Positions 45,446-61,175 of a stretch of DNA of 64,000 nt are shown one piece after another. The stretch's first letter is position 1, and every line of letters starts with the position of its first letter. The translations under genes were made by a program, and so were the position numbers. The DNA comes from Desulfurococcales archaeon. GTDB taxonomy: Archaea > Thermoproteota > Thermoprotei_A > Sulfolobales > Desulfurococcaceae. The stretch covers positions 32,001 to 96,000 of the forward strand of contig JALVYU010000026.1 of assembly GCA_027022365.1 (NCBI GenBank), given 5' to 3'. The notes beneath the pieces were generated by a model that searched no databases, was not told the origin of the DNA, and saw nothing but the letters and a program-made list of their open reading frames with translations.

Positions 45446-45485
45446 CCCTCCCCCATCTATAAGATCATGTTTTTATGGGGGAGGG
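45446..45485. repeat. 11-bp inverted repeat at element junction
   Basis: CCCTCCCCCAT (45446-45456) N18 ATGGGGGAGGG (45475-45485). Confidence 0.7.
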
Positions 45486-46623
45486 GCAAGGGATGGTTCA
45501 GCTCCACTATGATATGAATAGTATAAAGGTATTAATAGAAAATGGTTGCAAAGAGTTAGGACCCATTTACTGCCGTGTTCTTGAGGATTTATTTTACGAC
45601 TATATGGGTGATACCAGAGTTTCAAGCCTCTCAACCATAAGGGTGGGGCTTGATAAGGCGTGGGTATTCCTCAGATGGCTCAAGGAGAGAGGTGTGAAGC
45701 CAGATAATATAGATGATAGGATCCTTAAGCGCTTCCTAGTAGAGATCAAGATGACGCGGAAACCAGGAACAGTTTTCAGCTACGTAAAAGCCCTGAAAAG
45801 AATGCTGAGAGTACTGGGCAAAGAAGAATTAGCAAACAAGCTAAAGTATCCCAAACAACCCGAAAAGGTTCCAGATCTCCCAAGCCCCGAACTAGTAGAA
45901 AAGATCATATCAGAGCTGAGGGATCCCTTCAAAACCATAGTAGCAATAATCTACGAGACAGGGGCCCGGGTCTCCGAAATACTAAGCCTAAAATACAAGC
46001 ACATCAAAGAGACACCTCAGGGATACTACAAGATCATAATTGAAGAACCAAAAAACAAGGAGTCAAGAACAATATACGTGATAAAATACGCAATGCTTCT
46101 AAGAAACTACTTACTACTACACCCAGGAAAACCAGACGAAATAGTCTTCAAATCACCAGTACACCCGGAGAAACCCCTAAAGCCGAGAAACGTCGAGCTA
46201 GCCCTCAGAAGGGCATCAAGAAAACACAACACACGGATCTACCCACACCTCCTACGACACCTTAGAGCAACCCTCCTAATCAAACAAGGCATGCCGGAGC
46301 GAATAACAATGAAGCTACTAGGCCACAAAACCGAGAAAATGATGAAAATATACGTAAACCTGGTTCAGAAAGACATTGAAGAAGCAGTACTAAAACACTA
46401 CGGAATACAGCCTCAAGCCCAGAACAACGGAAAAGAAGCAACTAAATGCCCAAGATGCGGAGCAACCAACCCCAAGGAAGCAAACTACTGCTGGAGATGT
46501 GCCTACCCACTACACCAACAAGCCGCATTACAATTAGAAATAAAAGAAAAAGACCTGGAAGAAAGACTAAGGAAATTGTTGGAAATTATAAAGAAACATC
46601 CAGAAATTCTCAAAGAGCTATAA
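45475..46623 (+). CDS. int: tyrosine recombinase/integrase with C-terminal zinc ribbon
   Basis: TGARVSE (R), K, HLLRH, LLGH, IY catalytic set; CPRC...CWRC tail; start may be 45493. Confidence 0.92.
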   Translation: MGEGQGMVQLHYDMNSIKVLIENGCKELGPIYCRVLEDLFYDYMGDTRVSSLSTIRVGLDKAWVFLRWLKERGVKPDNIDDRILKRFLVEIKMTRKPGTVFSYVKALKRMLRVLGKEELANKLKYPKQPEKVPDLPSPELVEKIISELRDPFKTIVAIIYETGARVSEILSLKYKHIKETPQGYYKIIIEEPKNKESRTIYVIKYAMLLRNYLLLHPGKPDEIVFKSPVHPEKPLKPRNVELALRRASRKHNTRIYPHLLRHLRATLLIKQGMPERITMKLLGHKTEKMMKIYVNLVQKDIEEAVLKHYGIQPQAQNNGKEATKCPRCGATNPKEANYCWRCAYPLHQQAALQLEIKEKDLEERLRKLLEIIKKHPEILKEL

Positions 46624-46666
46624 AGTCTATTCTAGAATTTTAGTGTATTTGTAAAGATTAATTTAA

Positions 46667-47719
46667 TTAGTTACTAGTATTTTTCATTTCTATAATTTGC
46701 TTTAATATTTTGTACGTTTTTTCCCAAGAACATGAGTTTCCTAATCCCTCGACATCCTTAATAATTTTATATAGTGCTTGTCTATCTATACATTTATTAA
46801 ATATTACATCTTGCATATCTGTAATGTAATCCCTTATAGTTAAATAAGCCATCCATCCGCAGATTTCTGTGAAGTATTTTAAGTATCTAAATAGTTCTTC
46901 AGGAACAGGTTCTAACTCTAACCAGTCTCTATCCGTTATGATTCTTTTTCCAACTTCGGAGAAAATTGGATGGATACGGTGTACGTATCTGGATAATTCG
47001 ACGTAAAGATTATTTATTTTCCCAAGAATATCCCCATCTATAATGTTCCATTCCTTCAATTGGACCAAGAGTTTAGTGAATTTACTTTCTGGATTAAAAT
47101 CTTTTAATTCATTGTCTATGATGTCAAAAACTTGTATAGAAGTATCCAATCGTTTATCTGCTAGCTCGCTAAGTACTTTAACTAAATCGTTAAATCCTTT
47201 TGAATCACCAAATCCTTTTATTTTTTCAATTTCTTTTGCATTATTACGATATTTTGGTATAGTAATTAGATCAAATATTATGCCTCTAACTATATCTTCT
47301 AAGACACTTCTTAGTTCTACATAAGCTACTGTATAGTAACCCATGAGGGCTGAAATTAATGAATGCTCAAGCAAAATTAATGCATCATAATGGTGAACCA
47401 TGTATGCTGAATGTAAATTCCAGAATTGTGTATGTAAAGATTCCTCACACAAACTCTTTGAGGGAAGCAGATTTATGACGATATTTCTAGATACTATAAA
47501 TGCATTCTGTGCTGTGCTAAGAGCTTCAACAGCATCATATGTTGTAGAAGGTTCTGGCAAGTTGCTAAGATTCTCGGCTATTTTCTCTATATATTTTCCT
47601 ACCTTCTTTATTATGTAGAGTATAAAATCTATAGATATAGCAGCCTTTTTAAACACTTCAGTGTTCTTCGGATCTTCTTGATGATTATGCAGTTTTTGAG
47701 AATCACTTATTTTAGACAA
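46667..47719 (-). CDS. AT-rich helical protein, HEPN-like
   Basis: A...LRSVLE and LY..LSRYVH motifs. Confidence 0.5.
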   Translation of the reverse strand: MSKISDSQKLHNHQEDPKNTEVFKKAAISIDFILYIIKKVGKYIEKIAENLSNLPEPSTTYDAVEALSTAQNAFIVSRNIVINLLPSKSLCEESLHTQFWNLHSAYMVHHYDALILLEHSLISALMGYYTVAYVELRSVLEDIVRGIIFDLITIPKYRNNAKEIEKIKGFGDSKGFNDLVKVLSELADKRLDTSIQVFDIIDNELKDFNPESKFTKLLVQLKEWNIIDGDILGKINNLYVELSRYVHRIHPIFSEVGKRIITDRDWLELEPVPEELFRYLKYFTEICGWMAYLTIRDYITDMQDVIFNKCIDRQALYKIIKDVEGLGNSCSWEKTYKILKQIIEMKNTSN

Positions 47720-47884
47720 GATGTACTAATCCCCAATTATATGCTATTATTTATTAAGTTTATGAAAATTTACTTATGTCGGCAATTAAACTCTCAGAAG
47801 CTTCACTTAAATTTGACGAATATTCTAGAAAGCTCTAATGATATAGAATAGAGAGGGATTTGCTGTTTCTAATAAAACTAATAG

Positions 47885-48496
47885 TTATGTTTTGTTTCTT
47901 TTATTTTCTTTCAGTCTTCTCAATAATGTTGAATATGATATATTGAGTAGTCTTGCACAGTCTCTTAGGCTAAGTCCTTTCCTGCGGTATTCTCGGAATT
48001 TCTTCCAGTCGATTTCTTTTCTCGGTCTGCCAATGTGTTTGCCCTGCATCTTCGCCCTCAGCATTCCTTCTCTGGTTCTTTGTCTTAGGAGTTCTCTTTC
48101 CCTCTCCGCGGCCCAAACCAGTACTGCTATGACTAGCTTTCTCACTTGTGGGTCTAGGTTTTGGAGGAACTTCTCCTTATCGCTGACAGTAATAACGGGG
48201 GAGTTCAGCTCCTCTAGCTCCTGGATGGCCCTGAGGGTTTCGTAGAATGTCCTCCCCAATCTGCTCAGCTCATATACTAGGACTGGCCTAGGCTTCTTCC
48301 GTGCATGCTCGATAAGCTCCTTGAAACCCTTCCTCTCCCAGGGAGGAACAGCCCCGCTAACACCAACGTCTTCAAACCACTCTACCACCTTGTAGCCGTT
48401 GGCATCAGCCCACCTCAGTATAGCCAGCCTCTGATTCTCAGGATGCTCCTCCCTCAAACTAACCCTAATATACGCATAGGCCTCGCTCGGCTCCAA
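47885..48496 (-). CDS. serine recombinase (resolvase/invertase) with C-terminal HTH
   Basis: YIRVS catalytic Ser, Q, D.GVSG, SRLGR, ERE...R, GRP, HTH. Confidence 0.92.
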   Translation of the reverse strand: MEPSEAYAYIRVSLREEHPENQRLAILRWADANGYKVVEWFEDVGVSGAVPPWERKGFKELIEHARKKPRPVLVYELSRLGRTFYETLRAIQELEELNSPVITVSDKEKFLQNLDPQVRKLVIAVLVWAAERERELLRQRTREGMLRAKMQGKHIGRPRKEIDWKKFREYRRKGLSLRDCARLLNISYSTLLRRLKENKRNKT

Positions 48497-48510
48497 AACC
48501 CATATCCCCT

Positions 48511-48556
48511 TTTTTACAATAATCTATTGTAAAAACCTAGGCTTTTAAAACTAGGT
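48511..48556. promoter_or_regulatory. two adjacent palindromes upstream of resolvase (res-like site)
   Basis: TTTTTACAATA-ATC-TATTGTAAAAA and ACCTAG-GCTTTTAAAA-CTAGGT. Confidence 0.5.
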
Positions 48557-48731
48557 GCAGAAGGGCCCCCTTTCGAAGCCGAAACGATCATACACTATAT
48601 AAATGAAAAATCTTCTTTGAAAATTCTAAAGAAGTATTATTTACTTGTTTAAATTGCTAGGAATATTTAATTTCTAGTTTTAAAGCTGGATAAATTAATA
48701 TCTTTAATGAAGCTGGCAAAATAAGGGATAT

Positions 48732-49467
48732 GTGATGCTGAGGAAAGCTATCTCGTTTGAAGACCGAGAGGCTATGGTTCTTCTTATCGCTGGTATAATC
48801 TTTATTCTGTTGGTGGGAATAAACTCTGTACTATATTATTATGGCAAGCTAGATGAGCTTTTTGTACATATTTCATTAATGGCTGTATATATTTTCACTG
48901 CGCTAGCGGTTCTATACCAGGCACTCTATACAAAAAGAATGGTTATAGAATCTAAGAGGGTACAAGCATGGCAGATAATAAGTAGTCATCTTTATCATCA
49001 TATAGCTGCATCAATCATGACCTTTAAGCTTGTAGCTAGAGATCTGGATAAATTATCTTCTAAGAAACATGCCGACTGGGAAACTATCAAAAAACTTTTC
49101 AGAACCCCTTTCGTAACCCATAATGCACCCTATATAATACAACCATATATAAAACCTAAACCAGGATTAGGCGCTGGAAGAGGAGCAGAAATATATCGCT
49201 ACAATCCCCGCATTTAATGAAGCCATAGAAGTGCTAGTAAAAGCATGTATAGTTTTAGGCGAGAAGGTGCTCAAAAAAGAATTAGAAAAACTCCGTGAAC
49301 AAATAAAAATGTTAGTAGTCGAAGAACCTAAACCTGAAAATATAAAAAGTATATTAACAACTTTAAAGAGCCATATCAAATCATTATCGGAAAAAGCCGA
49401 AGAAATATTCCATATACCTATAACTGAGCCTTTACTCGAAAGCTTTCAACCAAATATAGACAACTAA
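48732..49467 (+). pseudogene. membrane protein gene split by a +1 frameshift at ~49170
   Basis: Removing one G from TTAGGCG joins the 161-aa and 78-aa ORFs via ALEEEQKYIATIPAFNEAIEV. Confidence 0.6.
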
Positions 49468-49901
49468 TTATCATGTATCGAGTTTAATACATTGTAAAAT
49501 AGTAGTGTTGAAACTATTGAAACTATTTTATTCTTAATATTGATCGAGAAACACTGAAATATAAAGTATTTAATCTTTCGTTTAATCTTTCGGTCCCAAA
49601 GGCCAAAATAAAATTAACAAGCATTGTATCGTTTATGAATGCGATGAATTCTAGGCCATAATAATCCATATTCCACGAGTTTGTACGACCTGCCTATAAG
49701 CTTTTTCAGGGTATTAACTAATGCTCCAAATTGTGAAATATCATTAGGTTCAAGCCTACGCTTTGCTGTATTTATTCCACTTATTACTTGTATAGAAAAC
49801 GGAAATGCAGGGATCCCTAAATATATCAGCCGTTAGAAACCGTACAAAATAGAAGTTAATAAATAAATAATTATGCTTAACGAGTATATGGTGATACAAT
49901 A

Positions 49902-50828
49902 ATGGTTTCTGAAAATTTTTCATCATTTTCATTCGATGATCCCTCATTAATTCTTTCCATAATTTCGATCATTATATCAGCAACATCAGTTGCTGTAACC
50001 TTTCTATATAATAAACGCATGTACAAGCTAGCCTACGAACAAGACCTGTTAATAAGGAAGGAAAAACACTTCAATGAACTAAAGAAATACGTGATCGAGC
50101 CCCTTTTATATGAGGATAAGCGTTCAAGCTTTAATCCATACTTCTTCATAGACATGGTAAGATATCATTATCCTGAAGTAGGCGACCAAATAAAGCAACT
50201 AGTAAAGAAGTATAAATTATATGAAAACCTTGAAGAAAACATAGTAAATACTTGTCTTGCAATAATTAATGAAAAGGGAAGAAAGGAATCAATAGAATTT
50301 TCAATTACGAAATATAAATTAAAAGAACATTTGTCATCCATTATTCGTATTTTAATACACAATGAATTACAGTATCAAAAATACATAGACATAAAGCCTC
50401 CGCTAGAATTTCCTGTAGACGCCATACAAAATAAGGACAAACATAAATTAATTCAAATAACAGTTAGATATGAACTACGCTTCCTAGGGAGTACTATATA
50501 TGTGCATGAAGACGCTGATATAGTACTGAAAGCCAAAGAGGTTTTCTTAGAGGCACTTAATGAGATGCGAAACGATAAAAAATTAAGAAAACTAGCTGAG
50601 CAATATCAAAAAATAGGCCTAGAATTACCCAGATTGAACAGTAAAGTACGTAAAGAACTCATTCGCTTGCTCGAACAACCACCCACAGCACTAAAACTAG
50701 TTAACAATGTGCTATGCCCTTATATGAAAGGACAAGAAGATAAAGAATTTAGTAGGGAGGAAAAGACTATGATAGAGAATCTTTTAAAGAATTTCCCGGG
50801 AGAAAAAAGGGGATTTATTGTAGATTAA
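49902..50828 (+). CDS. N-terminal TM anchored helical protein
   Basis: GGTGA RBS; single TM then charged helical domain. Confidence 0.7.
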   Translation: MVSENFSSFSFDDPSLILSIISIIISATSVAVTFLYNKRMYKLAYEQDLLIRKEKHFNELKKYVIEPLLYEDKRSSFNPYFFIDMVRYHYPEVGDQIKQLVKKYKLYENLEENIVNTCLAIINEKGRKESIEFSITKYKLKEHLSSIIRILIHNELQYQKYIDIKPPLEFPVDAIQNKDKHKLIQITVRYELRFLGSTIYVHEDADIVLKAKEVFLEALNEMRNDKKLRKLAEQYQKIGLELPRLNSKVRKELIRLLEQPPTALKLVNNVLCPYMKGQEDKEFSREEKTMIENLLKNFPGEKRGFIVD

Positions 50829-51020
50829 TTTATTATTAAGTATTGTTCATCACTATCCTGTATCTATAATTAATTTTTGAAAAAGACTCCCACATAAGCT
50901 AATTCCTACCAAAGTCTCCTTTGAAGCCATGAGTTAAAGCTTTAAATTCCTGACCTTATTGATGTGGTTATGAAAAGGTTTATATGGTATGACAAGAATA
51001 CTTTCATCCTAGGTGATAGT

Positions 51021-51326
51021 ATGACCATCGTTAAGAAGACTGTGGCGCTTCATCCTTTAGTTGATAGGGCTGTTAGAAGGCTATGGGCTAGACTGATTGA
51101 GGCTGGACTAGATGCTTCCTATTCTACGGCATTAAACTTATTGGTCATGCTTTCACTTTGCTCCGAGAACCTGGAGGACATAGGACTTGATAAAAAACAA
51201 TGTATGGGCCTCATGCTAGACATACTATTCAGAAACCGTGAAGACATAGAATTCAGCGAACACATGGTCAGAGCAGAAGAAATACTCACGAAGAAGATCA
51301 TACAGTATTTGACAAGAAAACAGTAA
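51021..51326 (+). CDS. small RHH-like DNA-binding protein
   Basis: KKTVALHP..D..VR...SYSTALN; GGTGA RBS before ATG 51021. Confidence 0.55.
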   Translation: MTIVKKTVALHPLVDRAVRRLWARLIEAGLDASYSTALNLLVMLSLCSENLEDIGLDKKQCMGLMLDILFRNREDIEFSEHMVRAEEILTKKIIQYLTRKQ

Positions 51327-51329
51327 AAC

Positions 51330-51425
51330 AGGCCGGGGGGATGATGAGCGCTCGGCGGTTTTACCCTCCAGCCCCACATGGAGGGGATAAAGAGCTTTTA
51401 AGGCGCTGACCCATACCCCCGGCCT
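51330..51425. ncRNA. structured RNA candidate with C and D boxes
   Basis: 10-bp terminal stem AGGCCGGGGG/CCCCCGGCCT, ATGATGA at 51341, CTGA at 51406, inner CCCTCCA/TGGAGGG hairpin. Confidence 0.5.
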
Positions 51426-51539
51426 CCAATATACTACTATTTTTCAAAGCCTTATATAAAGATATGAATTCAGGAATTTCCGGAGGCCCTACTCCATGAT
51501 CGAGATGAGCATCGAGATTGAAGGTAAGAGAGTTTATTT

Positions 51540-51881
51540 CTATCCTTTACTCTCGCGGAATGGCCTCAATGATTTTGTCTCATTAATTACTAGCACGGGC
51601 TTTAATACCGTGGTCGCTGGGTTTACACATAGTGTTATAGAGCTTGAGAATATGTTAGTAGATAATATCTCTACTATGAATGAAATCGGGTTTTCTATAT
51701 CATGAACAGTAAGAGCCAGGGCCTCACTCAGCCGGCAACCAGTATACACTAAGATCGATACAAGCGCTAGATCGCGTATACCGTATTGCCCCCGCTTATA
51801 AGCTCTATACGCTCTCTTCAAAGCATCAACCAAAGCCTCAAACCGGGGAACATCATCAAGCTTTAGTTTAGGACCACTCAA
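51540..51881 (-). pseudogene. truncated tyrosine recombinase
   Basis: RDLALVSILVYTGCRLSEALALTVHDI (box I) followed by unrelated sequence; no HxxR/Y. Confidence 0.75.
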
Positions 51882-52085
51882 ACATTTCCACCTACTAATA
51901 TTATGATTTAAAAAACGGAAATTAAACTTCGGGATCTAATAACGTCCCATTTCCGAAAAGTATTGAAAACGGAAATAAATTCACTTATTGAATATCGATT
52001 CCTCTATGTGTTCAGAGTTAGGTTTATTGATATTCAAGTATAAATACAATGTATACTTAGAAGGTGAAAAATACCCAAGATCACC

Positions 52086-52481
52086 ATGAGTGTTTCCCAA
52101 GAAATACTAGCCAGACTGGGAATAGACCGTAGAAGAGCAGCTTCTCTCCCCAAAGAACAAATACTAAAACTCAGCAAAACCGTTGAAAGAACCACCTATA
52201 ACGAGAAAGTTCTCATAAAACTATCCCAGAAGCTCTATAATGAGCTCTCAACACCCTTAGATAAAGCAATAAAGGATGAAACAGAGAAGCTCACAATAAT
52301 AGATCTTATCCGCACAATATCAAATCTAGACATTCTCTACGAACTAATCAAAGGAGAAGCAAACACACCAATAGAGGACAAGATCCTAAAATACATAGGA
52401 CTTGAAATAGAACTACTAAAAACTACCCTAGAAAAAAGATACGAGCTATTCAAAAACTCGAACGCGCCAAAGGAGAAATAA
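52086..52481 (+). CDS. hypothetical helical protein
   Basis: 131-aa ORF with A/C-rich element-type codon usage. Confidence 0.6.
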   Translation: MSVSQEILARLGIDRRRAASLPKEQILKLSKTVERTTYNEKVLIKLSQKLYNELSTPLDKAIKDETEKLTIIDLIRTISNLDILYELIKGEANTPIEDKILKYIGLEIELLKTTLEKRYELFKNSNAPKEK

Positions 52482-52537
52482 GGTTACGTAGAGTCGAAAA
52501 CATTCTCTTATCTATAGAAAAATCTATCGAACATGAA

Positions 52538-52732
52538 ATGCTAACAGATATACTAAAAACCTCTATACATCTCCTAGCCTATGTAACAGGCCTAATACAA
52601 TCAGTAGACATAATAGGAAAGAATCTAAGAGAAGCAAACAAAGAATTATCACAAATGCTAGGCAACCTCCTAAACATATTAGAAGAAATAAATCCTCAGA
52701 AAAGGAACCGATCCTCAGAAATGTATGTATAA
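52538..52732 (+). CDS. hypothetical small protein
   Basis: 64-aa ORF. Confidence 0.4.
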   Translation: MLTDILKTSIHLLAYVTGLIQSVDIIGKNLREANKELSQMLGNLLNILEEINPQKRNRSSEMYV

Positions 52733-52760
52733 AATTATTCAAAAGGTCAAGGTATCATAA

Positions 52761-53837
52761 TTAGTTGACCCCTTCATATTTAACTATTAGCATATCTGAA
52801 GTAAACGCTATTGGAAAAAGATTAAGTTCTTCAGAAATTTTAACTATTTCTTCTTTTATAGCGTTTAAGATAATATTGTTTAATAGTTTGTCTTTCTTTT
52901 GATGAATATTGATTATATAATTAGCTGTTTCCTGTATAGTATATAAATTAAAGTCAGGAATAATTTCAATTATATTAAATCCCTCATTAAGTATATTTTC
53001 AACAATCTTCCTTTTATCTTTTGAAGCTACGTAGGGATACATTATATAGCCCTTTCTAAGACCATTAATCTTAAGAGCTTCTTTTCCACGTTTTATCCAA
53101 GTTAATAACTCTTTCATTGAATAATACGGATCGCATTCAAAGATATCGAAACGTCCTACGAGATCACGAGGTAAGGGATCAAATAGATCGTGATGTACTG
53201 TTTCTAGTGAAATTCCGTATTTATTTCCAATTTTGTTTAATTTATCTAATAAATCGGAATCCAAATCGATGACATATATTTTTAGATCAATTTCGTATTT
53301 TTTGAATAATATGCCAAGAGCAATGCTAAGACAATCATCATCGCCCAACATTACAGCATTTTTGAGTTCGAAACCATTATCGATTAATATTTTAATAGCT
53401 CTATTTACTATCGAATAAACATGTGCAGGGTATTGATTTAAATGACGTTTCAGTTTTATAGAGTTTCGAACATCATTTATCGCAGTTATTATTTCATAAA
53501 AAGTTTCTGAAGGAATATTTAATAACAATCTATTGTTAAGTGTTATTATTTTTTCTTCTTTAAGTATCTTCAATAAAGTATAAGAAGGTAAAATTCCTAT
53601 TTTTCTGACTATGTCACAAATAGACTTAAAATCAGAATTAGAAATAATAACTCTTGTCATGCATTCATAAAATATCTCATAAGGTATTTTTGAATAAAGA
53701 GCATTCCTTATTTCCTCTATATCTTTATATGTATTCGTATAAAGATATATTCCTATTTTTTCGAAGATCCTTATTATATATTTGGTTAATTGGTTAATGA
53801 ACGCATTATAGAGTTTATAACTCGTATTTGAATCCAT
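52761..53837 (-). CDS. BpsA-like (DUF43) aminopropyltransferase, SAM-dependent methyltransferase fold
   Basis: NQ, R, LGDDD.LSIAL, IDLD..L, HDLFDPLP, FD.F.CDP, IIPDFN.Y match branched-chain polyamine synthase motifs. Confidence 0.75.
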   Translation of the reverse strand: MDSNTSYKLYNAFINQLTKYIIRIFEKIGIYLYTNTYKDIEEIRNALYSKIPYEIFYECMTRVIISNSDFKSICDIVRKIGILPSYTLLKILKEEKIITLNNRLLLNIPSETFYEIITAINDVRNSIKLKRHLNQYPAHVYSIVNRAIKILIDNGFELKNAVMLGDDDCLSIALGILFKKYEIDLKIYVIDLDSDLLDKLNKIGNKYGISLETVHHDLFDPLPRDLVGRFDIFECDPYYSMKELLTWIKRGKEALKINGLRKGYIMYPYVASKDKRKIVENILNEGFNIIEIIPDFNLYTIQETANYIINIHQKKDKLLNNIILNAIKEEIVKISEELNLFPIAFTSDMLIVKYEGVN

Positions 53838-53854
53838 AAACTACACCCTATCTA

Positions 53855-54991
53855 TTATATTATGCCTTGATGAAAAAGTTTGTTTGAAAATGATTTTATA
53901 TAATGATATATATATTTCATAAGCTCACATTTATAGGTTACAGGAATATGTATATTGTTATAAAAATATTTACTCTCCAAGGGGCATTCACCACCACAGA
54001 TATTAATAGCTTTACACTTTAGACACTTAGGAATATTTACTGTTAATCTTTCATTCCATGTTTTAAAAGGATCTAATTTATCTAGTTCATTTAAATCCCT
54101 AATATTATTCACATCAATAAATTCAGAAGTTAAGGCAGCACAAGGACTAATGTACCCTCCCGGTGAATAAATAATATGAATACCACATCCAAAACAATCA
54201 GGAATAGGTGGTTCTTTTTTTAAATAATAGGATAGTGCTTCAGTTAACTTAGAGCTTATATAGGCATGCTTCTGGATGCTAACATTTAGTGCGTCCAGAA
54301 GAGCTTTAAATAACATCTGTGGGTCAAGAACTTCGTTTCTATTTCTTGCTATAGGTATATTTAAGTCTATGTACTTTGTTCGAGTAATATTTAATATATG
54401 AATTAGTGATTCTTTTATATGATTAATATTGTGTTTATGTATAGTACATGCTATTCTAAATCTTATATTAAATTTTCTTAAAAGATTAATAGCACTAACT
54501 ATCTCATGATACGAACCTGATCCGTCAGGTTTAATTCTCATGAGATCATTGATATTTTCTGGTCCGTCCAGGGATATTGCTATGTTTATATTTAATTCTT
54601 TTAAAAGTTTCACGATTTTTTCATCTATAAGTGTCCCGTTAGTTATAATAGAGATCGTATACGGGCCAGTATCATGTCTTAATATTATCTTTAATACTTT
54701 TTTAAACAATTCTTTATAGAGGAGAGGCTCTCCTCCATAAAATCTATATACTCTTCTTTTGTTTAAATTATGCCTTATGAACATTTTTAGAAAATATTCA
54801 AACTTATTAAAGTTAAATGTTTCATTTAAATTAAGTTTATGAACCAGATAACAATATCTACATCTAAGGTTACAGTGCCAAGTTGGTATTATATATAATA
54901 CTGAGTATTTTAATGAATCTCTATATTTTTTTATGCTTTTTATTAATTTTGATGTTTCATCGCTCAAAAAGCCAACACCTAGGATCTCCAT
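53855..54991 (-). CDS. radical SAM/SPASM enzyme (anSME/ranthipeptide maturase-like)
   Basis: CNLRCRYC, FYGGEPLL, TNG, SLDG...ND..R..GS, SPASM C..CLKC...ICGGECP...C. Confidence 0.88.
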   Translation of the reverse strand: MEILGVGFLSDETSKLIKSIKKYRDSLKYSVLYIIPTWHCNLRCRYCYLVHKLNLNETFNFNKFEYFLKMFIRHNLNKRRVYRFYGGEPLLYKELFKKVLKIILRHDTGPYTISIITNGTLIDEKIVKLLKELNINIAISLDGPENINDLMRIKPDGSGSYHEIVSAINLLRKFNIRFRIACTIHKHNINHIKESLIHILNITRTKYIDLNIPIARNRNEVLDPQMLFKALLDALNVSIQKHAYISSKLTEALSYYLKKEPPIPDCFGCGIHIIYSPGGYISPCAALTSEFIDVNNIRDLNELDKLDPFKTWNERLTVNIPKCLKCKAINICGGECPLESKYFYNNIHIPVTYKCELMKYIYHYIKSFSNKLFHQGII

Positions 54992-56024
54992 GGTTTAAGT
55001 CCATATAATAAATATAAGACATTGCTGGACAACCACCACATATCTTTTGGAATTTACAGAATCGGCATTTACCTATAGATTCCCTTGCTACTTGCCTGTA
55101 ATATATGATCTTTTTCTTTATAAACAATTTAGTATTTAGAATATTGCCTATAGGGTCAGGTATATATAAGCAAGGAAGGATTGTTCCATCAGGCATCATA
55201 TATATCTTAGATATACACATGCCACAATATTTCTCTAAGTTGAACGTTTCTTTTATTCTTGTTGTATTAATTTGTTCTAATTGTTTATTATATTTTTTAA
55301 GGATATATGGAACTATAAAAGGAATGGTAGTTTTTACTTTAAAATCATTACGACCGTTGAACATATATTGAATATTTTTCTTAATAATAATTTCAAATAA
55401 TCTTTCATAATCTTTTTTATTTAGTATAATATCTTTAAGATTCTTGGCGCGACCTACCGGGATCAAATCGGTTAAAACGATGCCTTTAGAACCTATATTA
55501 TAAGCAAAATCGCAAAGACTATCTACATAGTTCAAATTCGTTTTTGTGACAACAGATGCAATACTAAAAGGTATTTCGTGCTTTTTTAATAATTTTAAAG
55601 TTCTTAGAACTTTTTTGAAAGTACCTCTGCCCCTGAACACATCATTTATATATTCTAATGGTGCATCCAGACTTATGATTATATCTATATAATCTTTTTC
55701 TTTAGCTAATAAATTGACAAATTGTTCTTTAATCAAAGTTCCATTAGTATTGATTCCTACCCTTATACCATAATCAATAAGTCTTTTAACTATTTCCGTA
55801 AATTGATTACATAAAAAGGGTTCTCCTCCAGTTATACCTATTTCTTTTATATTTAAATTTGAAAGTTTTTCCACGATTTCTAACTTTATACCATAATTGA
55901 TTTCTTTGAATAATTTACTTAAATAAACATTTGAACAATATGAGCAGTTTAAATTACACCTGAAAGTAACAACCCAAGTTATGTATTTAATATTTTTTAA
56001 AAAATCATATATTTTTTCATGCAT
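54957..56024 (-). CDS. radical SAM/SPASM enzyme (PqqE/NirJ-like)
   Basis: CNLNCSYC, TGGEP, TNGT, SLD, RGRG.F, PVGRA, PDG..LPC, CRFC...CGGC...DPRC. Confidence 0.88.
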   Translation of the reverse strand: MHEKIYDFLKNIKYITWVVTFRCNLNCSYCSNVYLSKLFKEINYGIKLEIVEKLSNLNIKEIGITGGEPFLCNQFTEIVKRLIDYGIRVGINTNGTLIKEQFVNLLAKEKDYIDIIISLDAPLEYINDVFRGRGTFKKVLRTLKLLKKHEIPFSIASVVTKTNLNYVDSLCDFAYNIGSKGIVLTDLIPVGRAKNLKDIILNKKDYERLFEIIIKKNIQYMFNGRNDFKVKTTIPFIVPYILKKYNKQLEQINTTRIKETFNLEKYCGMCISKIYMMPDGTILPCLYIPDPIGNILNTKLFIKKKIIYYRQVARESIGKCRFCKFQKICGGCPAMSYIYYMDLNHGDPRCWLFER

Positions 56025-56053
56025 CTGTAGATCACTATTTAATATTATAGATA

Positions 56054-56194
56054 TTATGTTACGCCAGGACTAATTTGACACTTGCATTTAGCACATGCAG
56101 TCAATACATTATTTATTATCAACTTTAATACATCATCTTTATTGATAATAATTTCCTCCTCCGAAATTTTTGGATTAGCTAACTCAGCCAACAT
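56054..56194 (-). CDS. putative RiPP precursor peptide (46 aa)
   Basis: MLAELANPKISEEEIIINKDDVLKLIINNVLTACAKCKCQISPGVT; GGTGA RBS, TATA box, first gene of the rSAM operon. Confidence 0.75.
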   Translation of the reverse strand: MLAELANPKISEEEIIINKDDVLKLIINNVLTACAKCKCQISPGVT

Positions 56195-56226
56195 TGTCAC
56201 CTAATTTATTGAAATGTTTCATATTA

Positions 56227-56234
56227 TATATAAA
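56227..56234 (-). promoter_or_regulatory. TATA box of precursor/rSAM operon
   Basis: TTTATATA on minus strand about 33 nt upstream of ATG 56194, preceded by A-rich BRE-like bases. Confidence 0.55.
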
Positions 56235-56384
56235 ATTTATTGTTGGTCTTAGTTCAGTGTTATTAAGATAATTTATAAATACCATAATTGAAATATAGAG
56301 AACGAAGTACCAATAATATGGTTGCTTGACCAAGAATATTGGATATTAATTGATATACTGATCTTATATGATATTGGTGAAATA

Positions 56385-57665
56385 ATGTTTAGAAGAACGT
56401 ATGTATCATCGCTTTTTCTCGTATTGGTTGTTACTGTTGTTTTGCGGAGTATTGGTGATGTTGTTGAGGAGGTTACTGTTCCTTGGCAGGTGCTTGATTT
56501 TACGAATAGTATTTTTCTTGTTGGTGGTGTTTTTGTGTCGTATTTGTTGCCTTGGGTTTTTATTCCGTTTATTGCTGGTAGAGTTATTGATATTGCTAGG
56601 AATAAGTCCTTTGTTGTTGCTTTTTGTATGATTATGCAGATCTCGTCTGTTTTATTGATTATGTTCATGCTTTCTACTGGTTTAGAGACCTTATGGTTTC
56701 TCGGAATAGTCTATTTATCAATAATTGTTATAAGTACTACTGACTCTATACATAGGTATTTTGTGTTTACCAGCATTCCTGAACTAGTGGGGAAGAATGA
56801 GGCTCTCCTTAACAAGTTCAATAGTATTACAGAGCTTTCATCGGGAATAGGAACTATAGTCATGTATGTTCTCTGCGGATACTTGGTAGCAGTATATGGT
56901 TATAAGACGCTCTGGATAGACGTTTTATGCTTAACCATTATAGCTCTTCTACTAATCGATCTCAGCAGATCATTCAAAAAGAAACGCTTACGCTTCTACA
57001 AGGGTGCGTCTATGAATAAGGGCAAACAAATAAAATTTAAAGATCTGCTCAGTACTATAAAAAGGGATCCATTGGTGTTTTCTTACCTCGTTGTCGCTCT
57101 GGGTTTCAATTTCTTCACAGCACCCGTTTCTTTAGTTCTGATAAATTATCTTTACAATACCGTCGATGAACCCACTAAGTACTATGGCTTTATCATGGCG
57201 ATTTCAACTCTTGGAGCAATAATAGGTTCTGGCATAGTAGCTACGTATTCTAAAAAACTGAAATATATTTCTTGTATCATTATCGGGTTACTTGGTGAAG
57301 CAGTAGCTGTTGCAGGAGTATATTTCATAATAGCATATTCTAACGAATATTATAATTGGATACTTACCTTGTTATTAGTCACGGGTATGTATATGATAAT
57401 GGCTATTATGGGAGCAGTGCTGAATATAGGAGCTGATACATTGTTTCAAATGAGGATCCCAGAAGAAGTTCTAGGAAGTTTCAGGGGATTATTTGATAGT
57501 TTGGCCACTATTCCTATAGCATTATCATATATAGTTGTATCAACAATACTAGAGACGTGGGGATACACTATTATAACAGCATCACTAATGGGAATAGGAT
57601 CCATAATAATAGCCTTACTATACATAATCGCATATTCTATATTAATAAAGAAATTAAATACATAG
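56385..57665 (+). CDS. MFS transporter (Mef/DHA3-like exporter)
   Basis: About 12 TM helices, G..ID...K motif A, IPELV, Q..IPEE.LG; GGTGA RBS before ATG 56385. Confidence 0.85.
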   Translation: MFRRTYVSSLFLVLVVTVVLRSIGDVVEEVTVPWQVLDFTNSIFLVGGVFVSYLLPWVFIPFIAGRVIDIARNKSFVVAFCMIMQISSVLLIMFMLSTGLETLWFLGIVYLSIIVISTTDSIHRYFVFTSIPELVGKNEALLNKFNSITELSSGIGTIVMYVLCGYLVAVYGYKTLWIDVLCLTIIALLLIDLSRSFKKKRLRFYKGASMNKGKQIKFKDLLSTIKRDPLVFSYLVVALGFNFFTAPVSLVLINYLYNTVDEPTKYYGFIMAISTLGAIIGSGIVATYSKKLKYISCIIIGLLGEAVAVAGVYFIIAYSNEYYNWILTLLLVTGMYMIMAIMGAVLNIGADTLFQMRIPEEVLGSFRGLFDSLATIPIALSYIVVSTILETWGYTIITASLMGIGSIIIALLYIIAYSILIKKLNT

Positions 57666-57669
57666 CAGG

Positions 57670-58851
57670 ATGATTATGATGCAAAAGTCTCGTTTAAAAC
57701 ATTTACAGATATTACCAACATTATCGTGTAATATGAACTGTGATTACTGTTACATAAAATTTGCTCCTATGACACAAATTAATTATAAAATGAGTAATGA
57801 TACAGTTGATCTGATAGTTGAATCTATACGCCAAAAAAAGCTTCAATTATCTGATAATGCTACAATTACATTTCTGGGTGGGGAAGTAACTCTTTGTCCA
57901 GAAATTATAGATAGATTTTTTATAAAGCTTCACGACAATCTAAAGAAGAATAAATATATTATCAATATCCAAACTAATGGTTTAGAAATAAGTTCCCTCA
58001 TAGAGATATTACGAAAATTCAAAGATATTTTACCGCAAATAAACATAACGATTAGCATAGATGGTTTTGAAAAAATTCATGACTTTTATAGAAAGGACAA
58101 AAATGGCAACGGGACATTCAAGAGGATCCAAAAGAATTTAATAATGTTATTGAGATTATTGCATCCTAGCAAGATAACTATTCAGTCAACATTAACAAAT
58201 AAAACAAAAAATATTCATAATTTTATAAAAACCTTTCACTCATATGGTATAACAAAATTTCAACTAGTACCTGTAATCACTCCTCCAAGTCTTAGTCATA
58301 TGAGAATTAAACCAACGAATTACCTTGATGAATATATCAAAGTCATCGATTACTATTTTGAGTGCTTAAAAAAAGAAAATCCATTTACAGAAGATTTAAT
58401 ATCTCATTATTTATACAGAATATTGTCTTTAACTAATATCTTGACTAATCCAACTAATTTTCCTGAAAATATATGTCCTATAGGGGTTTCTGTTCTTGCA
58501 ATCGATCCTAAAGGATATGTATATCCCTGTTCAATGTTTGTAGGTTTTAAAGACTATTGTCTCGGAAGGATTGATAATATAGATAAGACTAAAGTAGAAA
58601 ATATAGTTCGGAAAGTAATACAGGGAAGAAGGAAATATTGTAGAAATTGTAAATTAATTAATATCTGTGATCATGGATGCGTAGCAAGAAACCTTATAGA
58701 AAAAAGTGATATAGCTATATTCCCTAAAGAATATTGTAGTATTAAAAGAAATATAATATTATATATTATCAAAAAGCTTTCTAGTATATTACCGAATCTC
58801 AATCCATATTTTCAACATATAGAAAAAGAATTAAGTTTACAGTATTTATGA
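57670..58851 (+). CDS. radical SAM/SPASM enzyme (anSME/ranthipeptide maturase-like)
   Basis: CNMNCDYC, FLGGE, QTNG, SIDG...HD..R...GNGTF, C..G...DPKG.VYPC, CRNC...C..GC...C. Confidence 0.88.
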   Translation: MIMMQKSRLKHLQILPTLSCNMNCDYCYIKFAPMTQINYKMSNDTVDLIVESIRQKKLQLSDNATITFLGGEVTLCPEIIDRFFIKLHDNLKKNKYIINIQTNGLEISSLIEILRKFKDILPQINITISIDGFEKIHDFYRKDKNGNGTFKRIQKNLIMLLRLLHPSKITIQSTLTNKTKNIHNFIKTFHSYGITKFQLVPVITPPSLSHMRIKPTNYLDEYIKVIDYYFECLKKENPFTEDLISHYLYRILSLTNILTNPTNFPENICPIGVSVLAIDPKGYVYPCSMFVGFKDYCLGRIDNIDKTKVENIVRKVIQGRRKYCRNCKLINICDHGCVARNLIEKSDIAIFPKEYCSIKRNIILYIIKKLSSILPNLNPYFQHIEKELSLQYL

Positions 58852-59321
58852 ATATAATTTTTAAATATCTTTGATAATCTAAGCAAATATTTTTTACCAA
58901 GCAGAGTTCTTTAGAAAATCTATAGCAACTATGTTGCTATAAATAACATCGTATTATATCCTTACAGCTTGACTACGAGAACGTATTCCATAATGTGTCG
59001 TTCAAAATTTACAATGGTCACGATGATTATACCGATTATCAATAAAAAATACTAATAATATAGATATTAACTCTCATATGAATTGACTGATTAATCTTAT
59101 CATAACTACGAAGGACATTGATCTAGCCCTATAGTTTGAGCGTATCGAATAGCCTTAGAAGAATAATGGTCCCGGTTAATATATGCATATACTAGAAGTC
59201 CAAGAATTCTATCTACTAAATTTTCTTGTCGCACCGCTTCCCCTCATTAATATTATAGACCTATATAAGCTGTCAAAACTTCTTCTAACAGGGTATTAAA
59301 TAATAATATACGGATTTGCGT

Positions 59322-61175
59322 CTAATAGGAGTGGGTAATTATATCAAGGGCTTTTTCTAGATCTATTTTTCCACCATACATTTGTATCGTTAATAGTAGT
59401 TTCACTGCCCATTCGCCGTGATGATCTCTTATTTGTGTTAAGAGTCTCTTGTCCAGTCCACGCATCGTGCCTGCAGGTGTTCGTGTTCTAATGTATTTCC
59501 ACAGGTCCGGGCTGTAATAGACCATGCCTTTCTCCAGGTCTACGGATATTAGTCCTACTTCTATTAGCTCGTATAGCTTTTTCCAGCCTGGATGTCTGGT
59601 GTAGTCTTCATATTTGGTCTCCTTGTCTAGTACTAGCTTGTTCTTCTTGAGGGCTTTGATGAGCTCTGGTATTATTTTCTTGATGACTATTTCGCCGCAC
59701 TGTATCACGGCCTGCTTGTAGAGGGGCTCGATAACGTTGACTAGGCCGGCTTCCCATAGTTGTCTTAGTTGTTGCTTGAGTCCTGGGCCTAGGCCTCTCC
59801 ACGCGGCCTCAACGATCTTTTCATAATCCTTCTCGGACAAAGTACATACTACTGGCTGCTTATTGAACACCGTCTCCACTAGAACCCGTTTCAGCCCCGC
59901 CTTAACCTCTGCTATCTCCCGGTGTAACTTGGCTATTGAGCCAGCAACATCTACGTGGGCCTGGAAGAGATTCAATAAGTCCTCAACACTCATCTCATTC
60001 TTTCTCCTACGGATCCTCCTCTCAATTCTCAGCGGTCCATCACCGTCGACACCACCCTTTAGGTAGGCAACCAAGTCCCCGGCCGTGAACTGGCCGGCCC
60101 GGAACTGGAGGCTACCCCTCCACAAATCACAGTGCAGGTCGACACGTAGAACAGATAAATCAACAACCCCAACCTCTACACCAAGAACCCCGGAAAGCTC
60201 CCCAACCAAAGCCTCCAGAAACCCCTCAAGCTCCCCGGGACCACTAAAAGACCCAGAAACAATAACCTCACAACCACCACTATATCCACACAAAACCCTA
60301 ACCCTACGACCCAAAACCTCAAACACAAACCCAAGCTTACCACCCATACCACTACCAACAACCCGAAAACCCCTCCTCGACAAACACACAAAACCACAAT
60401 GCCCCGGAACATACAAAACCAAACCATTAACACCACAAGAACCATCCTCACCACTAACACCGCCAAACCCAGCCGCAGGCGGGGCCCCTCCCCCAGCCTC
60501 CCCGATCACATTTTGCCCGGTATCAGAACCCTTGCTGGCGTCGGGGGCTTTACTACTACATATTAATGGTAATAGTGAACAAATCCTATTGGAAACCCTG
60601 TAGAGTCCCCGCTTAATCCTCTCGACATAGCCTGTTCTACGGAGCCTCCACAGATACTTCTTAACAAGATGGGGATCCAGTTTCAGGTAGAAGGCTAGAG
60701 TAGAAGGAGTAAACACCCGGAGCCTAGCTGCAGCCTCCAGGATCCTGCGGGAGACCATGCCTAGGAGACTAGGTCTAGGATGCCTTGAGACACTACTTGA
60801 GACACCCGGACCAGGAGTCACATCAACTCCATGAGACAAAGGACTAGAAGTCACTTCAAGACCATGAGACACCCTAGCAGAAGTCTCTTCACAACATGAG
60901 ACAACTCCATGAGACACCTGGTTGCTGGAGCACTTCTTCCTAGAGACAGGTAATAAGCCAGCAGCTGTCTCATTATAGGCTATATGAGACATTTGATTAG
61001 ACCTAGACCTCTTCGGAACATAGACTCCCAGAGCGATAAGCTTCCTACGAACCCAATCCTTAGAGATATAGAGGTTAAACCTAGAGGAAACCATACGGGC
61101 TATCTTACGGAGACTAAACCCTTGACGGTAGAGCTCTACGGTATACAAGAGAACAGGATCCAGGGACTGGGCCAA
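59322..61175 (-). CDS. putative replication initiator (HTH + wHTH + Rep_trans-like motifs)
   Basis: N-terminal HTH, wHTH (LWRLRRTGYVERIKRGLY), RVDLHCD...YLK...LRIER. Confidence 0.5.
   Translation of the reverse strand: MAQSLDPVLLYTVELYRQGFSLRKIARMVSSRFNLYISKDWVRRKLIALGVYVPKRSRSNQMSHIAYNETAAGLLPVSRKKCSSNQVSHGVVSCCEETSARVSHGLEVTSSPLSHGVDVTPGPGVSSSVSRHPRPSLLGMVSRRILEAAARLRVFTPSTLAFYLKLDPHLVKKYLWRLRRTGYVERIKRGLYRVSNRICSLLPLICSSKAPDASKGSDTGQNVIGEAGGGAPPAAGFGGVSGEDGSCGVNGLVLYVPGHCGFVCLSRRGFRVVGSGMGGKLGFVFEVLGRRVRVLCGYSGGCEVIVSGSFSGPGELEGFLEALVGELSGVLGVEVGVVDLSVLRVDLHCDLWRGSLQFRAGQFTAGDLVAYLKGGVDGDGPLRIERRIRRRKNEMSVEDLLNLFQAHVDVAGSIAKLHREIAEVKAGLKRVLVETVFNKQPVVCTLSEKDYEKIVEAAWRGLGPGLKQQLRQLWEAGLVNVIEPLYKQAVIQCGEIVIKKIIPELIKALKKNKLVLDKETKYEDYTRHPGWKKLYELIEVGLISVDLEKGMVYYSPDLWKYIRTRTPAGTMRGLDKRLLTQIRDHHGEWAVKLLLTIQMYGGKIDLEKALDIITHSY
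60785..60991. repeat. TGAGACA iteron-like array
   Basis: Seven direct copies (60786, 60798, 60832, 60865, 60897, 60910, 60985) and one inverted (60966). Confidence 0.8.

Follow-up and report, generated by a model that had tools for sequence, protein, structure and literature searches.

The window analyzed here, a stretch of 64,000 nucleotides (nt) from a Desulfurococcales archaeon (assembly GCA_027022365.1, contig JALVYU010000026.1, positions 32,001 to 96,000), carries a small cassette of radical S-adenosylmethionine (rSAM) enzymes and a candidate precursor peptide. The last gene of its operon encodes a member of PF01861 (BpsA_C), the family of the branched-polyamine synthase BpsA. The account that we favor, plausible if somewhat short of probable, is that this protein is an active enzyme that uses decarboxylated S-adenosylmethionine (dcSAM) to transfer a 3-aminopropyl group to a nitrogen of the cassette's peptide, the cassette being a horizontally acquired rSAM pathway for a peptide made on ribosomes and modified after translation (RiPP).

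The gene is arranged as RiPP tailoring genes are, in tight co-directional spacing with a precursor and its maturases, and with an aberrant GC content common to all of them. The candidate precursor is separated from the gene of rSAM/SPASM maturase A by 29 nt, the genes of maturases A and B overlap by 35 nt, and 17 nt, including a Shine-Dalgarno-like GGTG, lie between the gene of maturase B and the ATG of the PF01861 gene. The proposal of a first-pass annotation of the window, that the PF01861 gene is the last of an rSAM-peptide operon, is borne out by this spacing. The GC fraction is 0.269 in the PF01861 gene, 0.281, 0.274, and 0.272 in the three rSAM genes, 0.312 in the precursor, and 0.349 in the gene of a transporter of the major facilitator superfamily (MFS); it is 0.33-0.52 in the genes flanking the cassette, about 0.43 in the window, and about 43% in the genome as a whole.

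The PF01861 open reading frame (ORF) is the only above-cut-off match to its family in the host genome, which is 99.97% complete. Apart from one 20.8-bit match, a search of 60 relatives' genomes, 5 from the genus, 31 others from the family, and 24 from the order, found no homolog. Family members occur in 17 of 400 further genomes of the phylum, with 15 strong and 2 weak matches. Compared with reference members (14 of them by BLAST), the strong matches are of canonical-like or GNAT-fusion types and fall outside the clade of the window protein, and the two weak ones are unclassified. The best match to maturase A in 400 genomes of the phylum is 31% identical, so no orthologous cassette was found there. 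By its composition and distribution, the cassette is foreign, and the PF01861 gene evidently came along with it. Host genes include those for the TATA-binding protein and two reverse gyrases; the latter mark the host, by its gene content, as a hyperthermophile.

Membership in the BpsA/DUF43 family is well founded, as the first pass had it. The Pfam profile matches residues 151-307 with 87.7 bits (E = 9.3e-25, cut-off 27; profile positions 37-191 of 243), and none of the NCBIfam models matches the protein. The motifs on which the family assignment was first based, namely GDDD, D-x-D, DL..PLP, FD...DP, and FN.Y, are all found in the translation and in the alignment; those after GDDD read IDLD (D191, D193), HDLFDPLP (D217, P223), FDIFECDPYY (D231, D236-Y239), and DFNLY (F296-Y299). 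Six residues are invariant in all 81 aligned family members, and all six are kept by the window protein (Q135, G165, D166, D167, D168, and D193). Nine of ten further columns with at least 90% conservation are also kept (R146, S171, D217, D231, D236, P237, R250, F296, and Y299), the sole exception being F247, which is replaced by W. Searches of the Protein Data Bank (PDB) with phmmer returned the BpsA structures 2qm3 (3.6e-11) and 5xnc (6.9e-10). The intact cofactor site and family-invariant residues argue for catalysis, and suggest that the gene encodes an intact enzyme.

Two AlphaFold2 models, built from 15 and 81 sequences, have a mean predicted local distance difference test score (pLDDT) of 73.2 and 79.9, respectively. 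They consist of a helical N-terminal region (residues 1 to about 110), a class-I Rossmann catalytic domain (about 110-300), a 45-residue helical insert (300-344), and a last strand, with a pLDDT of 85-98 in the catalytic domain. BpsA crystal structures are the best structural matches of the model, both by Foldseek (E = 2.5e-15 for 2qm3 and 4.4e-14 for 5xnc, and overall to 2e-12) and by VIA-align (Z 24.2-26.1, root mean square deviation 2.1-3.5 Å over 210-232 residues). The next folds in VIA-align are METTL5 (Z 20.9), PH1948 (19.4), and N6AMT1/KMT9 and Trm11/14-type enzymes (about 16). METTL5 and N6AMT1/KMT9 are amino-nitrogen methyltransferases with (N/D)PP(Y/F) motifs, and N6AMT1/KMT9 acts on Gln and Lys of proteins.

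The window protein nevertheless differs from BpsA (EC 2.5.1.128), the family and fold of which it shares and which is represented by structures from T. kodakarensis (Tk; TK1691, 5XNC/5XNF/5XNH), Thermus thermophilus (6J27), and P. furiosus (2QM3). As described in passages of a 2026 review, the hallmarks of BpsA are the GDDD loop that places the aminopropyl group of dcSAM, with D159 and D160 of Tk-BpsA positioning its amine, and the acceptor-side residues Asp225, Glu259, Tyr290, and Tyr316; the same passages give a ping-pong mechanism, in which a flexible C-terminal acidic cluster carries the aminopropyl group (PMC12979288). These residues were mapped through the PDB alignments, where the chain number is the native number plus 20 up to Tyr316. 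GDDD, Asp225 (D236), Tyr290 (Y299), and a helical N-terminal domain at the same place are common to both proteins, and the Tyr316 position is taken by Phe345 in the window protein. In contrast, Glu259 falls on V270/A271, in an alignment uncertain by one residue; no acidic residue is in reach of that position except D274, which aligns to Tk D263.

Larger elements differ as well. The window protein lacks both the CxxC insert that follows the N-terminal domain of BpsA and its C-terminal acidic lid of the ELYDDEE type, and has the 45-residue helical insert, which BpsA does not. Beyond the conserved Ser (Ser347) it has 11 residues, compared with 32 in Tk-BpsA, ending ELYDDEESST, and with 37 as the median of the family. 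Of the 81 members, those with the shortest tails are P0042 (8), the window protein (11), P0003 (12), and P0013 (21). For residues 1-135, Pfam gives no match at E <= 0.01, and their alignment with the canonical winged-helix N-terminal region is weak (hhalign E 0.004), which agrees with the divergent N-terminus read in the first pass. Against Tk-BpsA the window protein scores 42 bits, a canonical member (P0018) 346.7, and a Methanothermococcus member of the DPPY class, described below, 151.7. Its catalytic domain has an isoelectric point (pI) of 7.1 and a net charge of 0, and in the relatives closest to it (P0003, P0004, and P0007) this domain is basic, with a pI of 9.0; most canonical (9 of 13) and DPPY-class (9 of 12) catalytic domains have a pI below 6, a contrast with the window protein that may partly reflect A+T-rich composition. 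The gene contexts also differ, a peptide-maturation operon standing against the polyamine context of BpsA. By these features and its motif IV, the window protein is, at the level of sequence, a member of the BpsA family but not a housekeeping BpsA, and this part of the first-pass claim can be retained.

Motif IV requires a correction to that claim. HMMER alignments place DPYY where 2qm3 and 5xnc (Tk-BpsA) read DPPE, in agreement with the first pass, yet this is no unique departure from DPPE, since DPPY is the majority form. In a census of 236 sequences, DPPY occurs 128 times, DPPE 15 times, and DPVE 12 times; DPYY is found in the window protein only and DPYW in P0003 only. Given these counts, DPYY is better taken as a variant of DPPY than of DPPE. 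Like the DPPY class, the window protein has an aromatic fourth residue in motif IV and no Glu259. Unlike it, the window protein has neither a tail of 28-40 residues, nor the SAM decarboxylase that members of the class usually carry or adjoin, nor the acidic catalytic domain that most of them have. We know of no substrate described for this majority of the PF01861 family.

HMMER, run exhaustively over 1.84 billion representatives, found 775 relatives at E <= 1e-3, of which P0003 alone (39% identical over residues 118-304) reached 1e-30. A word-index homolog search returned the window protein itself and P0002, and an alignment query returned five proteins. No relative was found on viral contigs, and tblastn against plasmids gave one weak match, annotated as bis-aminopropyl spermidine synthase family. 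In the IQ-TREE analysis (66 rows, 194 columns; bootstrap not fully settled), the window protein joins P0003 (support 99/79), then P0007 (96/82), within a 12-row clade (97/97), and BpsA of the characterized type forms a separate 15-row group (99/90). In the FastTree tree of 210 rows, the window protein falls within a set of 149 leaves (support 89), which includes the DPPY-rich clades. Two 515-residue members of the 12-row clade (P0033 and P0056) show, at residues of about 100-160, a match below the cut-off of 48 bits to the RiPP-precursor family Frankia_peptide (PF14407), with 27.4 and 40.1 bits (E = 4e-6 and 5e-10); this segment may represent a leader-like domain in fusion with the enzyme.

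The donor is suggested by the family as a whole. A SAM decarboxylase homolog is present at 42 of 85 other family loci (56 of them from species genomes and 29 from metagenomes), fused in 15 cases and within 0.5 kb in most others. Among 29 long family proteins examined with Pfam, four are AdoMet_dc fusions, and other fusions are to GNAT, to a phosphopantetheine carrier-protein domain, and to an RrnaAD-like (rRNA-adenine-dimethylase-like) methyltransferase. Because of this association and the invariant GDDD, dcSAM appears to be the donor of the family, and aminopropyl is the group most likely transferred. The first pass had left a choice between aminopropyl, aminocarboxypropyl, and methyl transfer, and the link to SAM decarboxylase favors the first. 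The host genome contains two AdoMet_dc genes and SpeE.

In the scheme that we infer, from the donor and the choice of the peptide as acceptor to the modified residue, the order of steps, and the direct mechanism, the rSAM/SPASM enzymes would first cross-link the 46-residue precursor at its three Cys. This candidate has an acidic, leader-like N-terminal part and a C-terminal part ending ...TACAKCKCQISPGVT, with three Cys and two Lys. After or during thioether formation, the PF01861 enzyme would move at least one aminopropyl group from the host dcSAM pool to a peptide nitrogen, most likely the epsilon-amine of a Lys in the AKCKC core or a free alpha-amine, with release of 5'-methylthioadenosine, and the MFS protein would then export the product. 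Because the lid that carries the aminopropyl group is missing, the transfer would probably be direct, by bimolecular nucleophilic substitution (SN2) in a ternary complex. An acceptor nitrogen is suggested because the D-P-x-aromatic form of motif IV is kept and the nearest folds outside BpsA are amino-nitrogen methyltransferases. The more specific claim, that a BpsA-fold enzyme uses dcSAM to aminopropylate a thioether-bridged archaeal RiPP on Lys or at its N-terminus, directly and without a lid, and is the first example of such an enzyme, is tentative and rather doubtful.

The three rSAM proteins (Table 1) resemble peptide maturases at a distance, and none of them reaches an NCBIfam equivalog cut-off. 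The best models are AhbD, NirJ2, ScmE, and MftC-like ones for maturase A (123-151 bits, all below cut-off), PapB (128 bits) and DynA (125 bits), both far under cut-off, for maturase B, and PapB (162 bits, cut-off 340) for maturase C. Matches in the PDB are SkfB (6efn, 1.9e-14) for A, anSME (4k37) and CteB (5wgg, from chain residue 81) for B, and CteB (5wgg, 2.4e-16, from chain residue 91) for C. No N-terminal RiPP recognition element (RRE) is present in A, B, or C, because CteB and SkfB align with them only after their own N-terminal peptide-binding domains. The gene of maturase C starts 4 nt past the stop of the MFS gene, the product of which is likely an exporter. A 127-nt intergenic region separates the MFS gene from the divergent precursor gene and contains, about 30 nt upstream of the precursor, a TATA-like A/T box (TTTTATATATAATAT), which is a putative promoter. 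A scan for sigma-70 promoters and intrinsic terminators, unsuited to archaea, did no better than on shuffled sequences. PADLOC found a generic viperin-core similarity of the rSAM domains alone and nothing for the PF01861 protein.

Table 1. Positions of the cassette genes, of motifs within them, and of nearby recombinase genes, counted from the first nucleotide of the window.
Feature	Positions	Strand	Basis
Tyrosine integrase with zinc ribbon	45475-46623		
Serine resolvase	47885-48496		
Integrase fragment	51540-51881		
Co-directional run: precursor, rSAM/SPASM A, rSAM/SPASM B, PF01861 gene (last)		(-)	
PF01861 (BpsA_C) aminopropyltransferase-like protein, 358 aa	52761..53837	(-)	open ORF, ATG start; Pfam match
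Motif IV DPYY (D236-Y239)	53121..53132	(-)	read in sequence; alignments
GDDD motif (G165-D168), counterpart of BpsA dcSAM aminopropyl-positioning loop	53334..53345	(-)	read in sequence
Radical SAM/SPASM maturase B, 378 aa	53855..54991	(-)	Pfam Radical_SAM 75.6 bits; CX3CX2C at residue 40
Radical SAM/SPASM maturase A, 355 aa	54957..56024	(-)	Pfam 85.6 bits; CX3CX2C at residue 23
Candidate precursor peptide, 46 aa (stop codon included)	56054..56194	(-)	ORF, ATG 29 nt upstream of rSAM A
TATA-like A/T box about 30 nt upstream, and AGGTGA directly before precursor ATG	56197..56234	(-)	sequence
MFS transporter, 447 aa, divergent	56322..57665	(+)	Pfam MFS_1 61.7 bits; TIGR00900 95.5 bits, below cut-off
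Radical SAM/SPASM maturase C, 393 aa	57670..58851	(+)	Radical_SAM 61.9 bits, SPASM 23.7 bits; CX3CX2C at residue 20

A second, independent pairing of a PF01861 gene with a putative peptide maturase is found on a 1.8-kb metagenome contig (locus L065, 2-1813). There, genes for an rSAM/SPASM protein, a PqqD-family protein (37.9 bits, cut-off 23.4), and a PF01861 protein follow one another, each start overlapping the previous stop. The rSAM/SPASM protein is 27% identical to maturase A over its full length, and identity between the two PF01861 proteins, that of L065 and that of the window, is 33%. The L065 protein (in full length P0013, 224 aa) is without the N-terminal domain, reads DPIW at motif IV, and has a short tail. 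In FastTree it falls together with P0003, P0042, and the window protein (support 80), and a clade of the window protein, P0003, and P0013 is merely not rejected by the approximately unbiased (AU) test (p 0.37). P0013 is also encoded on a 6.6-kb contig.

DNA of the operon itself occurs in hydrothermal-vent metagenome runs of four studies; no RNA data set is listed among the sequencing runs that carry it. In three runs from other studies, small contigs match the window exactly or with single differences. Another study's run (X8) contains a variant, about 93-94% identical, that spans the PF01861 gene, maturases B and A, the MFS gene, and maturase C. The PF01861 gene is kept in this variant; over 850 nt it differs by 57 substitutions and by an insertion of 6 nt that leaves the frame intact.

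Several observations weigh against a peptide-tailoring aminopropyltransferase. L065 is the only one of the 85 other loci with an rSAM/SPASM gene in the same operon, and IQ-TREE leaves its PF01861 protein as an unplaced long branch. An rSAM ORF lies in the flank of seven of the 85 loci; in six of these (L038, L052, L060, L083, L089, and L090) it is 1.8-6.4 kb off or convergent, with unrelated genes between, and probably represents background, the rSAM genes of L060, L038, and L083 being of a non-SPASM kind and either convergent or about 4 kb away. In the phylogeny, the placement of the window protein outside the canonical BpsA group, expected from the first pass, stands in the best tree, but a single clade of the two is not rejected by the AU test (log-likelihood difference 24.6, p 0.156). 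The notion of a repurposed, RiPP-associated clade is likewise half supported, by the clade that the best tree sets apart from canonical BpsA but not by its association, as L089, the only other member of the 12-row clade with context, has no RiPP-like neighbors. Searches found no homolog of the precursor beyond the precursor itself, no SAM decarboxylase inside the cassette, and no RRE or PqqD-like domain in the PF01861 protein, the N-terminal region of which was compared with the L065 PqqD by hhalign. Model confidence in this region is low: even in the model built from 81 sequences, pLDDT is no more than 51-78 in the first 110 residues and in the insert at 300-340, and the N-terminal range across models is 36-78. 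Finally, one X8 contig (record 28) joins 55948 to 56175 and so removes 226 nt (55949-56174), which comprise the larger part of the precursor ORF and 25 codons at the start of maturase A; an assembly artifact or decay of that strain's operon would explain the join.

Some of these points suit an unlikely alternative, in which the protein is a non-canonical aminopropyltransferase for polyamines or other small amines, serves the host or a mobile element, and merely travels with the peptide genes. According to the passages available from the review cited above, characterized members of the fold all act on free polyamines (PMC12979288). Most family loci look like two-gene dcSAM/aminopropyl modules with no peptide genes, the hyperthermophilic host has no other BpsA, and the AU test allows a position next to canonical BpsA. 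However, the protein is missing a counterpart of Glu259 and has neither an acidic lid as carrier nor an acidic catalytic domain, features that would suit polycationic substrates. The gene is, moreover, close-packed behind two peptide maturases and has their aberrant GC, and its L065 homolog overlaps a gene for a PqqD peptide-binding protein.

The enzyme could instead tailor the peptide with another group, using SAM as a methyl donor for N-methylation or as a 3-amino-3-carboxypropyl donor, which we consider quite unlikely. Its fold is that of class-I methyltransferases, N-methyltransferases are its next-best structural matches, and the sources of its relatives name them 'predicted methyltransferase'; the cassette, too, is without a SAM decarboxylase. 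Set against this is the Asp triplet of GDDD, invariant in all 81 members, SAM decarboxylase fusions included. In passages of the review, D159 and D160 of Tk-BpsA position the aminopropyl amine of dcSAM (PMC12979288), a place at which the carboxylate-bearing SAM should be disfavored. The host, with its two AdoMet_dc genes and SpeE, would supply the dcSAM that the cassette does not.

Slimmer still is the chance that the cassette makes no RiPP at all, its enzymes acting on a cofactor, a nucleotide, or another small molecule, and the 46-codon ORF being spurious. That maturase A scores best with AhbD/NirJ tetrapyrrole-modifying models would fit, as would an ORF that has no homolog and is mostly missing from one contig of a close variant. 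Yet all three rSAM proteins are far below equivalog cut-offs, and their best solved relatives (SkfB, CteB, and anSME) are maturases of peptides or proteins. The small ORF occupies the canonical place of a precursor, with TATA-like and Shine-Dalgarno-like signals and a three-Cys tail, and L065 has a peptide chaperone of the PqqD type. Since the X8 deletion also takes the start of maturase A, it looks like decay of the whole operon and not like dispensability of the ORF alone.

A non-catalytic role, in which the helical, winged-helix-derived N-terminal domain of the PF01861 protein presents the leader to the RRE-less maturases, would account for the want of a CteB/SkfB-type RRE and of PqqD in the cassette, and for L065, where the PF01861 protein has no N-terminal domain and a separate PqqD is present, but is very improbable given the intact cofactor-site and invariant residues, an N-terminal region with no detectable similarity to PqqD, and the same domain in canonical BpsA, which indicates that it was not acquired for a scaffold role.

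The aminopropyl decoration proposed for the cassette peptide has a precedent in microcin C. In the E. coli mcc cluster, as described in passages of PMC6385645, this RiPP receives a tailoring 3-aminopropyl group on the phosphoramidate of the peptidyl-nucleotide. The microcin C pathway depends on the adenylyltransferase MccB, which neither Pfam nor NCBIfam identifies among the six cassette genes. To go by the title of a JACS article of 2025 by Kulikovsky and colleagues, a B. subtilis homolog is reportedly dcSAM-dependent. The best matches of the cassette rSAM enzymes among solved structures and NCBIfam models belong to thioether-forming rSAM/SPASM RiPP pathways, the sactipeptides and ranthipeptides (SkfB, CteB/SCIFF, and PapB). 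The three-Cys core fits pathways of this type, whereas no model reaches its cut-off and the cassette enzymes have no RRE. Full-text searches found no literature link between thioether RiPP classes and a PF01861 partner, nor between the PF01861/DUF43/BpsA family and RiPPs or rSAM clusters.

Protein lysines carry polyamine-type modifications in eIF5A, as deoxyhypusine, and in the silaffins of diatoms, where they are polyamine-modified. The substrates of deoxyhypusine synthase are spermidine and NAD, and its fold is unrelated to BpsA; the silaffin enzymes are, to our knowledge, eukaryotic and have not been identified with the PF01861 family. If Lys is the acceptor in the window peptide, the product would be N6-aminopropyl-lysine, possibly extended, a chemical analog of the hypusine and silaffin lysines. 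So far, the only role known for enzymes of the BpsA family is to make free branched polyamines in thermophiles, and aminopropyl tailoring of RiPPs is known only on the nucleotide part of microcin C. Peptide aminopropylation by the PF01861 enzyme would add a new cationic modification of +57 Da to the RiPP repertoire. The source would be an archaeal hyperthermophile, and in this group very few RiPPs have been characterized. It would endow hyperthermophilic archaea with a polyamine-like, covalently cationized peptide, a prokaryotic counterpart of hypusine- and silaffin-type lysine chemistry. It would also provide a first functional handle on the DPPY-class majority of PF01861 and open non-polyamine substrates to it. 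The system is small (four genes, the exporter, and one more rSAM) and directly testable.

The cassette lies in a mosaic region (45475-61175) that also contains a tyrosine integrase with a zinc ribbon, a serine resolvase, and an integrase fragment (Table 1). No convincing att-like direct repeats were found, the window contains no tRNAs, Rfam has no matches over 40000-64000, and PHROGs gave nothing useful for the ORFs of the island. Several orphan ORFs of the region, with a GC of 0.31-0.40, have no Pfam, PHROG, or PADLOC match. A further ORF of 617 aa (59322-61175, GC 0.49) has a Gly/Ser/Val-rich middle and a weak match to a transcription regulator.

Three minor observations concern other family loci. 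At L060 (7236-9780), a canonical-like PF01861 gene stands tail to tail, at a distance of 5 nt, with the gene of an rSAM protein that bears a helix-hairpin-helix domain and is of another kind than the rSAM enzymes of the window. The N-terminal extension of L052, 313 aa long, matches nothing in Pfam at E <= 1. At L009 and L056, ORFs that contain CX3CX2C adjoin family genes, but by Pfam they are not rSAM proteins. In X8, the contig with the MFS variant (56446-57680, about 94% identical) has a depth of 200-300, compared with mostly under 50 for the neighboring cassette genes; the transporter, or one similar to it, may also be present in a much more abundant organism or element.

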